From assembly GCF_004010195.1 (NCBI RefSeq), contig NC_057718.1, positions 63,781,905 through 63,845,904 on the forward strand: 64,000 nt of DNA. Direction: 5' to 3'. Below are positions 6,023 through 25,510 of this stretch, in pieces (positions within the stretch are counted from its first letter, which is position 1; each line of letters begins with the position of its first letter). The translations under genes and the position numbers were made by a program. The DNA comes from Chiloscyllium plagiosum. Its lineage: Eukaryota. The notes under the pieces are model-generated. The model made no database searches, was not told where the DNA came from, and saw only the letters and a program-made list of their open reading frames with translations.

Positions 6023-6427
6023 TGTAGCGATTGGAACCAGGTGGACCTCATTGACTGTGAAGTCTTTGGTTGTTAATCTGGAGAAGGTGAGGACTATAGA
6101 TGCTGGAGAGTCAGAGTTGAAAAGTGCAATGCTGGAAAAGTACAACAGGTCAGGCAGCATCTGAGAAGCAGGAGAATCAACATTTTGGGCATAAGCCCTT
6201 CATCAGGAATGTGCAAGATCACATTCCTGATGAAGGACTTATGCCCAAAATGTTGACTCTCCATTATTAATCTGGGCCAATCGGGAGGCACTGACTGACC
6301 AATATTAACAGGGGATTTAGAATCTCCTCAATTCAGGGGACTGACTCCAAGCTGGCTGGCCACAGCCAATGTACTATGCTCAAGGGTGAGTTGGTGATGG
6401 GATACTGGCCTCAGTGCAGTTATTTCA
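6023..6427 (+). repeat. 5' LTR of the Gypsy element (contains insertion 6082-6266)
   Basis: TG...TTCA termini; aligns to 11001-11223; followed by PBS-like TGGCAATGGGA at 6429. Confidence 0.85.
6082..6266. mobile_element. Head-to-head Penelope pLTR mini-element with two decayed hammerhead motifs
   Basis: Inverted arms each contain CTGATGAAGG(G/A)CTTATGCCCAAAA; TSD TTAATCTGG at 6073-6081 and 6267-6275; absent from the 3' LTR. Confidence 0.85.
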
Positions 6428-6742
6428 GTGGCAATGGGAGGAAACAGTACATGCCTGAAGAACATGGCCTCACAACAGTCATCTTTGAGTTGGGGTAAGC
6501 ATTTCTGGCATCATGCCTTTATTTGGGAAGCTTGACCTATTTGATCTTGCTGTCGAAGACTGGGAAAGAATGCAATATTTTTTCTGGGAAAATGACATTG
6601 GGGCAGATGCAAAGCAATGAGTAATTCTTCTGACTGCTTGCAGACCTGCAGCATTTTCAGTTATAAGAGGTTTAACTTTCCCAGAAGCACCTGGCATTAA
6701 AACCTTCCAAGAGTTGCAGGAGTTTGTTAAGGAATATTAAGA

Positions 6743-7285
6743 TTCTGGATTAGTGGTGCTGGAAAAGCACTGCAGTTCAGACAGCATCCGAGGAGCAGTA
6801 AAATCAATGTTTCGGGCAAAAGCCCTTCATCAGGAATACAGGCAGAGAGCCTGAAGGGTGGAGAGATAAATGAGAGGAGGGTCTCCTCAGGCACTCTGCT
6901 TGTATTCCTGATGAAGGGCTTGTGGGCGGCACGGTGGCACAGTGGTTAGCACTGCTGCCTCACAGCTCCAGAGACCCGGGTTCAATTCCCGCCTCAGGCG
7001 ACTGACTGTGTGGAGTTTGCACATTCTCCCCGTGTCTGCGTGGGTTTCCTTCGGGTGCTCCGGTTTCCTTCCACAGTCACAAAAATGTGCGGGTCAGGTG
7101 AATTGGCCATGCTAAATTACCCGTAATGTTAGGTTAAAGGGGTAAATGTAGGGGTATGGGTGGGTTGCGCTTCGGCAGGTCGGTGTGGACTTGTTGGGCC
7201 GAAGGGCCTGTTTCCACACTGTAAGTAATCTAATCTAATCTAATCCAGAGTCTGGTTTCCAGCATCTGCAGTCATTGTTTTTACC
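6743..7285. mobile_element. Head-to-head Penelope pLTR mini-element, itself interrupted by an HE1 SINE
   Basis: 15-bp TSD TAAGGAATATTAAGA at 6728-6742 and 7286-7300; minus-strand hammerhead CTGATGAAGGGCTTTTGCCCGAAACATT (~6802-6837). Confidence 0.85.
6922..7240 (+). mobile_element. HE1-type SINE, young subfamily
   Basis: GGGCGGCACGGTGGCACAGTGG A-box, GGTTCAATTCC B-box, (TAATC)n tail; nearly identical to the copies at 14124 and 31766. Confidence 0.92.
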
Positions 7286-13259: not shown

Positions 13260-14002
13260 TCTTTTCCATCTTAATTATATTTTTGTTTGTCTTTTGTTGT
13301 TTTTTAAAACTTTCCCAATCCTATAGCTTACAACTAATCTTTGCCACAATGTATGTTTTTCTTTTAATATGTTGCTATCCTTAACTTTCCTTGTTAACCA
13401 TGGTTAGCTTAACACCTTTCTAGAATTATTCTTACTCGCTGAGATAGATCTGAACCATGAATTATTCGCTTAAACATATCTTGTCAAGGATTCACCTCAT
13501 TATCAAGGACGCAATTATTTTGTATCATCCTCAAATTGATTAAACTTGCCCCCACCATTTAACACAATATCATTGACATGTACCACGAAAGGCAAGGGTT
13601 CTAGATCTACATCCAATTAACTTCAACTGAAAATGGTCTTCAAGTCACAAAACATCCATTGCTTACAACCACTGAACCAGCTTGCCAATGTCCCTTGAAA
13701 TCCATTGGCTCTTTCTCTATTGACTAGTCCACCATTGGAACTTTATCAAAATCTTGCTAAAATGCATGCAGACTATTACCATCTTGCTAATTACTTTTTT
13801 ACATTTGTTAGTGTCTTTATTTAAGAGTTAATAAAAATAGGTGGAGGCTATTACTTATCTGAGCATAAAGATAAGGAGTAACTATTATTCCTTATCTTTA
13901 TTCTGTGTATGTTGTGATTGGGGTAAGATTAAGGAATGCAATAAACTCCCGCAGAAGAAAAGATGAATGTGTCTTGATTTAAATATCTTCAACTGGCTTG
14001 GA

Positions 14003-14490
14003 ACAGTGAATCGGATTCCTGTAAGTGTGGTGTTGATGATCCGATGTGTGTTCTCTATTTCTGTGTTTTTAATTATTACAAAGGTGTCATCCACATATCT
14101 GACCCAGAGTTTGGGTTGAATTTAGATTAGATTAGATTACAGTGTGGAAACAGGCCCTTCGACCCAACAAGTCCACACCGACCCGCCGAAGCGAAACCCA
14201 CCCATACCCCTACATTTACCCCTTATCTAACACTACGGGCAATTTAGTATGGCCAATTCACCTGACCCTGCACATCTTTGGACTGTGGGAGGAAACCGGA
14301 GCACCCGGAGGAAACCCACGCAGACACGGGGAGAACGTGCAAACTCCACACAGTCAGTCGCCTGAGGCGGGAATTGAACCCGGGTCTCTGGCGCTGTGAG
14401 GCAGCAGTGCTAACCACTGTGCCACCGTGCCGCCCATAATTTGCGGTAAGACTGTTTGTTCTAATCTTTGCATTACTGCTTCTGCGATGT
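14003..14490 (-). mobile_element. Inverted internal Penelope RT fragment, interrupted by a SINE
   Basis: Reverse complement matches ~15633-15800 (WVRYVDDTFVIIK region) with a few substitutions. Confidence 0.85.
14124..14437 (-). mobile_element. HE1-type SINE, young subfamily
   Basis: Full length; TSD AATTT at 14119-14123 and 14438-14442. Confidence 0.92.
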
Positions 14491-16029
14491 AATGATCCAG
14501 GTAATGATTACAGATGCACACAACAGAAATTGCGCGCCAAAAAATCGTTCATTTCAAAAACCACCAATCAGGAATGGACCCGGACCATAGAACAGGCCGT
14601 CACCATAGGACAGAACAGGACCACACACCGCAAAAAAAAGGCACTAAAAGAAAAAATGGCCAAACTAACACACAACAGAGAGGACACCACAACACACGCC
14701 TGGGTTAGAAACCTCTCCCACAGACAGCTCACAGACACGGAAAGAACAATACTGGCCAAGGGACTCAACTACAACCATAGGGACGCCAAGACGGCAGACT
14801 TCCTAGCAGCACTAGAATACATACTGAGGAACAATGGACTGACAGAAGAGACACAACAAACAGTGAGACAAAGTACCGTACCCCTGATAACAAGGAAAAG
14901 ACAAACACATAACTTCAACACCAAGGAGAGGGAAGCACTAAAAGCACTAAGAAGCGATAAGAATACAATCATACTACCAGCAGACAAAGGCAGAATAACG
15001 GTCATCCTGGACAAAGCAGACTACATCCAAAAAGCGCAACAATTACTTGCAGATACCAACACCTACCAAAAAAGGGAGTTTGACCCCACCCCACAGCTCA
15101 CCAATAAGATAAATAACACACTGAGGAACCTACAAAGAAACGGACAGATAACCAGGTCGGACCTACAAAGAATAAAACCTGAAAGCAACAACATCCCCAG
15201 ATTCTACGGTCTACTTAAAGTGCACAAACCAGACATCCCACTCAGACCCATAGTATCACTACCAGGGACACCATCACACACAAACTGGCCAAAGAACTAC
15301 AGCAGAAACTGAAACACCTGATCAGCGGATCCAGACACACTATACAGTCAACACAGGAATTCTTGGACATCATCAGAAATATATACATAGACAAGGAAGA
15401 AACCATGGTCTCATTCGATGTAACGGCACTGTTCACCTCTATCGACAAAACCCTAGCCAGAGAAACAATAGCCAACCTGCTGGACATACAGAACAGACAA
15501 CAGGATATTGAACCTATCAACAAAGACGGCATACTCAAACTTCTAGACCTGTGCCTCACAACACACTTCACATTCAACAACCAAATATATGAACAAATCA
15601 ACGGCACACCCATGGGCTCACCCATCTCTGGACTCATAGCAGAAGCAGTAATGGAAAGATTAGAACAAACAGTCTTACCGCAAATTCAACCCAAACTCTG
15701 GGTCAGATATGTGGATGACACCTTTGTAATCATTAAAAACACAGAAATAGAGAACACACACTGGATCATCAACGCCACACTCACAGGAATCCGATTCACG
15801 AGAGAGGAAGAAAAGGACAACCAACTCCCATTCCTAGGCGTGATGGTACAGAGAACACCTAACAGAGAATTCACCACAAAGGTATTCAGGAAAGCCACAC
15901 ACACAGACCAAGTCCTGAACTACGAAAGCAACCACCCCAACACACACAAAAGAAGTTGCATCAAGACACTATTCAAAAGGGCCACAACACACTGCAGCAC
16001 ACCAGAACTCCAAAAAGAGGAAGAAGAAC

Positions 16030-16133
16030 NNNNNNNNNNNNNNNNNNNNNNNNNNNNNNNNNNNNNNNNNNNNNNNNNNNNNNNNNNNNNNNNNNNNNNN
16101 NNNNNNNNNNNNNNNNNNNNNNNNNNNNNNNNN
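16030..16133. other. Assembly gap (N run) inside the Penelope element
   Basis: Run of Ns between the RT thumb and the YIG motif. Confidence 1.
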
Positions 16134-16460
16134 TACATAGGACAAACAGGAAGACAGCTAACGATCCGCATCCATGAACACCAACTAGCCACGAAACGAC
16201 ACGACCAGCTATCCTTAGTAGCCACACACAGAGATGACAAGCAACATGAATTCGACTGGAACAACACTATTGGACAAGCCAAACAGAGAACAGCCAGGGA
16301 ATTCCTGGAGGCATGACACTCATCCACAGATTCAATAAATAAGCACATCGATCTGGACCAAATATACCGACCACTGCAACTGACAACCAGAAGCAGCAGA
16401 TTCAAACCACTACAAATGCCGGAGAAAAGATCACAGAAGCGCTTCACAGGAGGCTCCCAA

Positions 16461-16500
16461 GCACTGAGGATGTCACCTAGACAGGGGACGAAACGTCTGC
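16461..16500 (+). ncRNA. Minimal type-I hammerhead ribozyme motif in the Penelope pLTR
   Basis: GCA-CTGAGGA-T-GTCACCT(AGAC)AGGGGAC-GAAA-CGTC-TGC: core intact, stem I GCA/TGC, palindromic stem III ACGT, predicted cleavage after C16497. Confidence 0.8.
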
Positions 16501-16559
16501 AACACAAATTCCCAGCTCAGCGAACAGAACCACAACAATGAAATATACTTACTGTTGCA

Positions 16560-19328: not shown

Positions 19329-19690
19329 GGTGTGGTGGCACGGTGGCTAGGGCGGCATGGTGACTCAGTGGTTAGCACTGCTGCCTCACAGTGCCAGGGT
19401 CGCGAAATCAATTCTAGCCTCGGGTGACTGTCTGTGTGGAGTTTGCACATTCTCCCTCCATCTGCATGGGTTTCCTCCAGGTGCTCCAGTTACCTCCCAC
19501 AATCCAAAGATGTGCGGGTTAGGTGAATTGGCCGTGCTAAATTGTGTGGAATGTGTAGGTTAGGTGCACTAGTCAGAGGTAAATGTAGAGCAATAGGGTA
19601 GGGGAATGGGTCTGAGTGGGTTACCCTTCGGAGGGACAGTGTGGACTTGTTGGGCTGAAGGGCCTGATTCCACACTGTAGGGATTCTATG
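19329..19690 (+). mobile_element. HE1-type SINE
   Basis: A-box, V-domain, tail GGGATTCTATGA; duplicated 5' start. Confidence 0.85.
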
Positions 19691-19861
19691 AATGGAGTCT
19701 GAAAACAAACGTTGTTTGGTTTAAACATAGACATCGCTTTGTTGTTTAATTTTGCTCTGCTAAAGTTACTATATTGTTAATAAGTTGCTAAATCTTATCT
19801 AAGCTACAGAGCAGTGTTGAGAATTGATCGGTTATAGAATCTGAGATTGATTATTGAAAAG

Positions 19862-20451
19862 AGTTGAAAAAATGTGGTGCTGGAAAAACACAGCAGGCCA
19901 GGCAGCATCCAAGGAGCAGGAGAATCGACGTTTCGGGCATAAGCCCTTCTTCAGGAATCTTTCCTGGTTGGGTCCAAATTGTGTTGGTTTGAATGTAGTC
20001 TGGAGTCCATGCGGGGTCAGTCGGTTCCGTAGGCAGGTGCTGAGGAAAGAGATGTGGCTGTAGTAGCGAGTTTGTCTCAGGACGTGGCTGAAGGGCTTCA
20101 GGGCAGAGGAGATGACCTGGGGGGGTGCAGTGAGAGAGGGACTCACTGAAATCCTGGTAGAGGGAGGAGGAGAGCTTCTTCAAGGTAGGCATCCTTGCAA
20201 GAGGATTCGCAGTAGGTTAAGATCAACTAGGAGAAAGTGAAGACTGCAGATGCTGGAGTACCAGAGTTGAAAGATTTGGTGCTGGAAAAACACAGTAGGC
20301 CAGGCAGCATCCGAGGAGCAGGAGAATCGACGTTTTGGGCATAAGCCCTTCTTCAGGAATCTTTTCTTTCCTGAAGATGGGCTTATGCCCGAAATGTCGA
20401 TTCTCCTGCTCCTCGGATGCTACCTGGCCTGCTGTGTTTTTCCAGCACCAT
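19862..20451 (-). mobile_element. Non-autonomous Penelope derivative: pLTR, ORF N-terminus, pLTR (minus strand) plus an inverted pLTR
   Basis: TSD ATTG(A/T)TTATTGAAAAG at 19846-19861 and 20452-20467; three hammerhead motifs; internal segment encodes MPTLKKLSSSL.../FSHVLRQTRYYSHISFLSTCLRNRLTPHGL, a PLE N-terminal HxxFLxxC-type motif. Confidence 0.85.
19921..19960 (-). ncRNA. Intact minimal type-I hammerhead ribozyme motif
   Basis: Minus strand AGATTC-CTGAAGA-A-GGGC(TTAT)GCCC-GAAA-CGTC-GATTCT: stem I 5 of 6 bp, stem II 4 bp, stem III palindrome ACGT, GUC cleavage triplet. Confidence 0.8.
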
Positions 20452-20713
20452 ATTGTTTATTGAAAAGTCTGGTTAGGAACCATTGGGGTTAATTTTGAGC
20501 ATCTTTCAAGGTTTTAATGTTACTATGCTGTGAATACAGAGGTAGGAAGACTAGTTGTCTGCTTCTGTGTCATAACATCTCTACCAAAGAGAACCTTCTG
20601 GAAGTCTAATAGTTAGTTTATTTAAAATTGCTATTTGCTTTTATCATGCCATGATTGTCTTTTAAATTATTTGCACGCACTTTACAAGAGATTTTGCCTT
20701 GTTTATAAATAAG

Positions 20714-23590: not shown

Positions 23591-23810
23591 TATCTTGGAG
23601 TGGAGAGTGTGGTACTGGAAAAGCACAGAGGTCAGGCAGCATCCAAGGAGCAGCAGAATCAACAATTCGGGCATAAGCTCTTCATTAGGAATGAGGGCTT
23701 ACGCTCGAAACGTCGATTCTCCTGCTTCACAGATGCTGCCTGACTTGCTGTGCTTTTCCAGAACCACACTCTCAACTCTAATCTCTAGCATCGGCAATCT
23801 TCACTTTCTC
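23591..23810. mobile_element. Head-to-head Penelope pLTR mini-element
   Basis: TSD CTCTTTTAAG at 23581-23590 and 23811-23820; inverted arms with hammerhead remnants (GGGCTTACGCTCGAAACGTCG). Confidence 0.85.
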
Positions 23811-24129
23811 CTCTTTTAAGGAGGTGTTAAATGAGTAATAATTCCCCCTTAACTGGCAAAATGTCGCTGCTTGTCAACTGCTCCAGGCATGGCAGACAGA
23901 GGGAATCTGTAACCCCACCTTGCCAACAGGGACCTGAAGGTCTTTGTGGATAGATGGTGTGGGCAGTCACTGCCAATGGAGCATGGCATGACATATTGAT
24001 GACCACTGTCCAAGATGGAATGCCAAAGAATCTGGAGTTCCCAATTAACTATTTTGACTTTCATGTCAAGAATCGTCACTGTTAAGTTTCTATCCAGAGA
24101 ATGGAAAATTGGATAATTGCATATCAATG

Positions 24130-25510
24130 AGTTGAGATTAACTAAAAATGAAGTATTCCTGTACAGTTACAACAATGGCATATTACCTGGGTTTGTCCTA
24201 TATACAAAAAACAGGACAAATTCAAACTGGCCAATTATTGTCCCATCAGTCTACTCTCAATCATCTGGAAAGTGTCATCAACAGTGCCATCAAACAGCAA
24301 CTGCTCAGCAATAACCTGCTCAGTGATGTCCAGTTGAGGATCTGATTGGGCAACCCAGCTCCGAACCTTATTACAGCCTTGGTTCAAGCATGAACAAAAG
24401 AGCTGAATTCCGAGGTGAGGTGAGCGTGACAGAACTTGACAGCAAAGCTGCATTTGACAGCATATGGCAGCAAGGAGCCCTAGCAAAACTGGAATCAATG
24501 GGTATCGGGGCAAACTATCTGCTGGTTGGAGTTATACCTGGTGCATTGGAAGATAGTTGTGTTTGTTGGAGACCATTCATCTCTGCAGAAGTTCCTTTGG
24601 GTAGTGTCCCAGGCCCAACCATCTTCAGATGCTTCAGCAATGACCTTCTCTCCAGCATAAGGTCAGCAATGAGAATGTTCATTGATGATTGCACAATGTT
24701 CAGCACCATTCATGACTCATCAGATACTGAAGCAGTCCATATTCAAATGCAACAAGATCCAGACAACATCCAGGTTTGGGCTGACAAGTGGCAAGTAACA
24801 TTTGTGCCGTACAAATGCCAGGCAATGGCCATCTCTAACAACGAACAATCTAACCACTGCCCCATGACATTCAATGCTGTTACCAGCACTGAAATTATCA
24901 ACGCCAATTATCAAACCTAACTGGACTCATCACATAAACACAGTGGCTTAAAAAGCAGGTCAGATATTAGGAATGCTGCAGTGAGTAACTCACTTCCTGA
25001 CTTCCAAAGCGTGTCCACCATCTACAAGCACTAGACTACATTGTGATGGAATACTCCCCACTTGCCTAAATGGGTGCAGCTCCAACAACACTCAAAAAGC
25101 TTGATCAAACAGCGTGCTTGATTGGTATCACACCCACAAACATCCACCCTCTCCACCACTGATGCTCAGCAGCAGCAGTACGTACTAACTACATAATACA
25201 CTGCAGATCCTCAAACTTTACCTTCCAAACCCACAACTACAGCCATCTAGAAGCACAGAAGCATCAGATACATGGAAGCACCACCACCTGCAAGTTCCCC
25301 TCCAAGTTGCTCACCATCCTGACTTTGAAATATATCACCGTTCCTTCACTGTTGCCGGGTCAAAATCCTGGATTTCCCTCCCTAAGGGCATTGTACAGTA
25401 CATGGACTGCAGCAGTTCAAGAAAGCAGCTTCTCAAGGGGCAACAAGGGATAGGCAATAAATGTTGGCCAGTCCACAATGTCCACAACACATAGGTGAGT
25501 AAAATGAAAT
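24130..25510 (+). mobile_element. CR1-clade LINE RT region with 3' end (family of 1435-5682)
   Basis: ORF 24390-24920: LDSKAAFDSIW, VPLGSVPGPTIF, MFIDDC, QQDPDNIQVWADKWQVTFVPYKC. Confidence 0.85.

Follow-up and report, generated by a model that had tools for sequence, protein, structure and literature searches.

The 590-base insertion described here is very likely a one-off insertion of a known kind, left by a Penelope-like element (PLE), and not part of a retrozyme family. We consider it fairly probable that it was made during target-primed reverse transcription (TPRT) by cap run-off and re-priming of the reverse transcriptase (RT) on one linear, uncleaved and capped RNA. The start site and the cap in this reading come from DNA joins, together with the initiator consensus and the cap-G signature. 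All positions refer to the window, which is the whole stretch of 64,000 nucleotides of the Chiloscyllium plagiosum genome that was analysed and which forms part of contig C9 in the 3.56-Gb assembly.

Read in element sense, on the minus strand, the insertion runs from a TSD copy through the inverted arm (20451-20368), a 7-nt filler and the pLTR with hammerhead from 20360 into the tail, the 5' UTR and about 77 ORF codons, and then across a 2-3-nt filler into the second pLTR with hammerhead (19958-19862) and the TSD (Table 1). The first-pass annotation had described tandem hammerheads 402 nt apart around a Penelope ORF stub. This arrangement is borne out by a 98-nt direct repeat (19868-19965 and 20270-20367) with 94% identity and a spacing of 402. 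The TSD had also been recognised correctly, with 16 nt on each side and one mismatch between the copies. The third, inverted hammerhead arm is present and is 93% complementary to both direct-repeat arms over 20368-20458; its position is refined to 5' of the upstream arm in element sense. Similarly, what had been given as about 270 nt of Penelope 5' sequence is Penelope-derived, and is better divided into about 231 nt of ORF plus the 5' UTR. Both direct arms begin at the same A, four bases 5' of the core, and differ from each other at a handful of sites. The tail is missing from both arms at the locus, in contrast to all 22 inverted pairs that were scored. The left join of flank and element is also found in DNA contigs of run X15 (one mismatch, one gap), which shows that the insertion was not created by an assembly error. 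Six of 51 nearby ORFs were scanned, and none of them was identified as a host exon.

Table 1. Parts of the insertion and its target site duplication in window coordinates.
Feature	Position	Strand	Remarks
TSD, left copy, AT-rich	19846..19861	none	basis: repeat analysis
Downstream (3') pLTR arm	19862..19958	-	3' end near core+93, in the first of two clusters of 3' ends known from the family
Intact minimal type I hammerhead	19917..19966	-	core 19927-19954, 4-bp stem II, ACGU helix III, cleavage 3' of 19927
Junction filler, 2-3 bases foreign to both parent segments	19959..19961	-	last base a non-native G
ORF stub, first ~77 codons of a putative Neptune-type PLE protein	19962..20192	-	ATG 20192, frameshift near 20119
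5' UTR	20193..20270	-	contains the ~40-nt 'tail' at about 20231-20270, which separates the two clusters of 3' ends in the family
Upstream pLTR arm with hammerhead core 20329-20356	20271..20360	-	G12>A at 20336
Filler between upstream and inverted arms, 7 nt	20361..20367	-	last base again a non-native G
Inverted pLTR arm, head-to-head	20368..20451	+	core 20371-20398, end at about core+81
TSD, right copy	20452..20467	none	basis: repeat analysis

A hammerhead pattern matched three times at the locus, at 19928-19954 (minus strand, no mismatch), 20330-20356 (minus strand, one mismatch) and 20371-20397 (plus strand, two mismatches), and never in 100 shuffles of the window. These matches agree with the cleavage positions 19927 and 20329 proposed before and with an intact downstream ribozyme; the minimal hammerheads with an ACGU helix III are likewise supported. 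The change from GAAA to AAAA in the upstream core had been put down to CpG-type decay, and the substitution indeed lies within a CpG. It is predicted to inactivate the upstream hammerhead. An Rfam scan returned no hammerhead at E<=5 and only hairpin look-alikes under the gathering score, a silence that is expected for the minimal type I motif. Stem I of the downstream ribozyme is lengthened by stub-derived bases at the junction, and its predicted fold reaches -14.7 kcal/mol, compared with -8.8 for a native-context copy without stem I. Folding predictions pair the upstream core with the inverted arm and, in the full transcript, the inverted arm with the downstream arm. There were probably two intact cores at the time of insertion. 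The missing G12, the frameshift in the ORF and the predicted sequestration of the arms make it most likely that the locus is inert today.

In the poly(A) single-cell RNA run X20, which is no test for circles, read depth over the stub was mostly 0-3 and over the unique flank zero. Reads ran in both directions, most of them derived from embedded pLTRs, and showed neither abrupt starts or ends nor a pile-up of molecule starts. Run X21 gave no aligned reads. A joint in X20 that goes back 391 was set aside as the normal pLTR-tail continuity of other copies, and it is present in X15, X19 and X1 too.

The ATG at 20192, already singled out in the first-pass annotation, is the first methionine of the parent ORF frame in longer copies. 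Its frame is broken by one extra C in a C-run of variable length (seven C at the locus and six in the copies L100-L102), and the N-terminal peptide goes on in another frame. A Pfam scan of the 52-residue stub gave nothing. The Penelope origin is supported by the 91-96% identity of the stub to 11 longer family copies and by RT and endonuclease motifs in longer copies of the family. Longer copies carry the stub onward into an RT-bearing ORF (RVT_1 E=8e-6, below the Pfam cut-off), and other longer copies show a CX4CxxC linker together with a GIY-YIG domain that has the CCHH cysteines. The CX2-5CxxC linker before the endonuclease is present in L095, which also holds the stub, and in L105. This linker is a mark of Neptune and Nematis (PMC8557442), and judging from these motifs the parent is a putative Neptune-type PLE, with a linker motif common to both groups. 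Most of the long copies retrieved are interrupted by N runs, either within the RT region or beyond it. The locus itself shows what is expected of an EN+ PLE insertion, i.e. a minimal-hammerhead pLTR, tandem and inverted arms, a TSD of the variable-length kind and a tail; the RT with C-terminal GIY-YIG/CCHH is found in longer family copies, outside this locus. The exact 29-nt hammerhead core occurs 31,178 times in the genome. In three copies, L039, L044 and L052, the ORF stub is joined to the endonuclease region at nearly one point, and these could be a true short non-autonomous subfamily, unlike the 402-nt locus.

Several other repeats lie in the window. A near-full-length, broken Penelope-like element of another family spans 14440-16516 on the plus strand, with RT motifs (RVT_1 E=7e-10), an endonuclease motif and an internal N run; beside it there is an inverted RT fragment (13885-14121), with a SINE-like piece between them. 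Related pLTR subfamilies are represented by a head-to-head pair with tail at 6080-6260 (cores 6180-6206 and 6227-6253) and by a solo pLTR at 6740-6920 (core 6807-6833) with about 90 nt of native upstream sequence. There is also a pLTR-like piece near 23700-23819, and a LINE-type RT fragment at 24327-24920 on the plus strand (RVT_1 E=3.5e-15). The tRNA-headed SINE-like repeat at 19345-19690 on the plus strand is highly abundant in read data, and we presume a family likeness to shark SINEs.

The first-pass annotation had suggested a retrozyme-like element whose junction of ORF stub and pLTR might recur across the genome. A 30-mer across this junction finds only itself in the 3.56 Gb, with up to two mismatches allowed; on the DNA side this is the outcome that the first-pass annotation itself had named as refuting its proposal. 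Scoring the best 40 of 1,293 candidates gave 30 loci with a similar junction, and these have many different breakpoints and fillers. In stub-only searches the joins are distributed all along the ORF; a hot spot near 402 nt seen among the clustered junctions was thereby recognised as query selection and rejected. The tandem set was built from 53 same-strand core pairs, 23 of which were left out because their coverage was low or their 5' piece short. The 30 contiguous tandems include 12 chosen for a junction resembling this locus and 18 unselected ones. Their spacings form a continuum from 256 to 2147 nt, and one of the 18 tandems not selected by junction likeness falls within 402+/-15. Directly upstream of the first 100 exact cores on contig C1 the ORF stub was never found, thus stub-joined tandems are a rare product.

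Compared with what is described for retrozymes, the locus has the geometry that had been proposed, with same-strand type I hammerheads 402 nt apart (150-450 nt in retrozymes). The other retrozyme characters were not found. Instead of two or more consecutive units with complete hammerheads there are about 1.2 repeat units, no tandem array was found, and the upstream core carries G12>A. A retrozyme monomer would be recurrent, low in GC (<45-50%) and strongly self-paired, and the would-be 402-nt monomer has 52% GC and 49% paired bases and folds no better than shuffles (z -0.6). The proposal of a retrozyme element is therefore not upheld, given the unique junction, the differing breakpoints and fillers in similar loci, the continuous spacings and joins that lie off the cleavage site.

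The ends of family copies were studied in the same first 100 exact cores of contig C1. The 3' ends fall into two clusters, core+85-99 in 56 copies and core+123-131 in 35. Upstream of the core, 36 copies continue into a head-to-head partner, 38 into flank, 25 into native 3' UTR and one into N. The non-native 5' starts lie 0-5 nt before the core in 69 of 74 cases; because the searches were anchored on the core and are blind to ends within it, the information in this distribution lies in its sharp upstream edge. We take the context of the A four bases before the core to fit the initiator consensus. A splice acceptor as the source of this pile-up was rejected, as native copies have no AG before that A. 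Of the 22 head-to-head pairs scored, a few of which entered the count from both arms, 21 carry the tail on one arm and not on the other. This points to priming of the two target strands at different RNA sites and suggests that they prime in coordination, perhaps via an RT dimer. The two 3' end clusters resemble the two internal RT start sites and the tail demonstrated in vitro for the anole PLE (PMC11167929). At one site of a repeated host sequence, pLTR insertions were found on three different contigs (L269, L282 and L287), indicating a preferred target within another repeat.

Many copies carry an extra G before the start. Among the 31,178 exact cores, 5,033 have a non-native base before ATTC, and in the first 100 of these, counted by hand, it is G in 68, A in 18 and T in 14. 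One base further up, 100 of 2,616 cores gave G in 20, A in 17 and C in 63, and the G:A contrast between the two positions is significant (Fisher p=0.008). The G is found at joins without target DNA as well, where the untemplated last base is G in 13 of 15 by script, compared with 9 of 37 at other breaks. After four doubtful calls were removed by eye it is G in 9 of 11, and in loci not selected for G in 6 of 8 (p=0.02). Eight of nine solo insertions have the G within the TSD, so a target preference could explain part of the genome-wide excess. An extra G is the signature of an RT that copies a cap. The non-native G that closes the junction filler of this locus would then be a copy of the RNA cap. 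For the R2 RT, non-templated addition is described as a condition for template jumping (PMC8857657).

In the tandems, the two arms tend to have a common 5' end. Native upstream sequence is present before both arms in five tandems and before neither in 25, so that the arms agree in 30 of 30 (p=7e-6) and in 18 of 18 unselected tandems (p=1e-4). The exact 5' break is common to both arms in 10 of the 25 non-native tandems (permutation p=0.0003). In 8 of the 25 the first foreign base agrees as well (p=8e-5), and in 15 the break differs between the arms. In four of the five native pairs the upstream lengths differ or are cut by N and cannot be measured. Arm identity is 92% within tandems and 88% between them. 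The best individual example of an RNA that was copied two times is L033 (C35:40979388-40982511), a 569-nt tandem in which both arms carry the same 32-nt foreign leader of inverted 3' UTR sequence, ending at the same base. Another example is L045, with a 144-nt native leader that ends at the same base in both arms.

Based on these joins, the whole insertion would consist of three front-end pieces of the element, joined in one round of TPRT. The endonuclease would nick both strands about 16 bp apart. The RT would then begin inside the RNA, about 95 nt from the capped 5' end, copy the uncleaved hammerhead and run off at the RNA end, adding a C opposite the cap plus one or two extra bases. It would prime again within the ORF of this RNA, about 400 nt from the 5' end, and copy back to the cap a second time. 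Finally, the opposite nick would prime a second short cDNA, joined head-to-head. The 402-nt spacing would be an accident of the re-priming site. More tentatively, and with somewhat less confidence than an even chance, PLE pLTR tandems in general may be built by such a strong-stop-like cycle on one linear capped RNA, i.e. internal priming, cap run-off and re-priming downstream.

A one-off insertion could also have arisen if the RT jumped to a second RNA molecule, or if it began in a 3' pLTR and was halted by the folded hammerhead and not by a cap. A preference for certain targets, microhomology or a slip by one base onto the GAUUC that follows the cleavage site would then account for the G. We regard this explanation as unlikely. 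In its favour, the break is not common to the arms in 15 of 25 tandems, in 8 of 9 solos the G is part of the TSD, many joins show microhomology, and native 3' UTR in 25 of 100 copies is what the standard 5'-truncation model expects. It is contradicted by the concordance of native or non-native status in 30 of 30 tandems, by the exact repetition of the 32-nt leader in L033 and by the untemplated G at joins without target DNA; moreover, a longer slip product was seen at no join. A full-length pLTR-ORF-pLTR copy that later lost about 3 kb by a DNA deletion is very improbable. Family copies with internal deletions do exist (L039, L044, L047 and L052). Here the right-hand break lies at the family's 5'-end hot spot with non-native G and filler, the upstream arm begins at the same base, and the breaks of 25 of 30 tandems, which could lie anywhere in the roughly 3 kb, are no more than 14 nt away from the core.

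According to the earlier proposal and the circle model of PMC4209133, the hammerheads would cut out a 402-nt monomer that is circularised and inserted after more-than-unit reverse transcription, so that the locus would be an incipient retrozyme. We judge this improbable. The spacing does lie within the 150-450 bp of animal retrozymes (PMC7229834), the junction lengthens stem I of the downstream ribozyme, and a preprint derives retrozymes from pLTRs and reports one chondrichthyan with them, at a mean of 363 bp (bioRxiv 10.64898/2026.07.22.740005). The 7 nt before the two arms of the locus match at six positions, as a second lap could leave, and this was rejected as proof of a circle: the 7-mer precedes 33 cores, mostly at head-to-head joins, and among 30 that were read only this locus has the stub before it. 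A lap round a circle would often leave stub sequence before the upstream arm, and none of the 25 non-native tandems has any (only L033 matches, via its non-ORF leader), which counts against the circle, as do the unique junction without a tandem array and the GC content and fold of the monomer. Cleavage-site starts are also rare. A purine precedes the 33-mer that follows the cleavage site in 261 of 29,703 copies, an upper limit of about 1% on such starts; 20 of these copies were read, and six are point mutants of an intact core and two show apparent internal deletions. Cleaved RNA is thus rarely the template, in agreement with PMC11167929, and the joins at the locus and its relatives lie at the 5' edge of the ribozyme, away from the cleavage site. 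Furthermore, minimal PLE hammerheads cleave weakly even as dimers (PMC4209133), and one of nine Xenopus dimers was cleaved (bioRxiv 10.64898/2026.07.22.740005).

EN+ Neptune PLEs (PMC8557442) are among the known systems close to the locus. They share the hammerhead pLTR, the inverted 5' copy, the variable TSD and the tail on one end, as well as a parent family with RT, CCHH GIY-YIG and the CX2-5CxxC linker, and they are reported with partial-tandem and inverted pLTRs and a 30-40-bp tail. The published arrangement is a 5'-truncated copy before a full-length one, whereas here a front end cut off on its 3' side forms the downstream unit and passes directly into a new pLTR beginning at the inferred RNA 5' end. 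The Poseidon element PAc of Anolis carolinensis (PMC11167929) is similar in its two internal RT start sites a tail apart, the extension of both target strands, the AT-rich target and the uncleaved RNA template. It belongs to another clade, and the main text reports no cap run-off, re-priming or tandem formation. Animal non-LTR retrozymes (PMC7229834; bioRxiv 10.64898/2026.07.22.740005) have same-strand type I hammerheads about 400 nt apart that are pLTR-derived, with a dimer-dependent helix III; in contrast, the locus is single-copy, has 1.2 units, one dead core, 52% GC and an ORF-derived body, and is known here from DNA. The PLE family of the locus may be listed among the chondrichthyan retrozymes in the supplements of the preprint. 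The minimal hammerheads of PLE pLTRs (PMC4209133) agree in the core, the unpaired base before stem II and the palindromic 15.2-16.2 positions, and likewise occur as thousands of dispersed single motifs. That work proposes circular templates for tandems, whereas the joins at the locus and its relatives point to a linear template. The formation of PLE tandems and inversions is stated as unresolved in PMC2377424 and PMC8557442. In the literature covered, which leaves out most subscription papers including older PLE reviews, we found no description of a PLE whose RT runs off at the cap and then primes again.

As one of tens of thousands of traces left by an element class already known, the locus is unremarkable in itself, and its value lies in what it reveals of the mechanism. 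The junctions of the family can be counted, and the counts favour a single linear, probably capped RNA that was copied repeatedly. This reading leads directly to a prediction for the in vitro PLE assay that is already available. If it is true, a telomerase-related RT would perform repeat synthesis on one template, and re-priming at the RNA 3' end would regenerate the full pLTR-ORF-pLTR element. Re-priming inside the ORF would keep seeding twin-hammerhead units of every length as raw material for occasional retrozyme selection, which offers a route from PLE to retrozyme that needs no circle at the first step.
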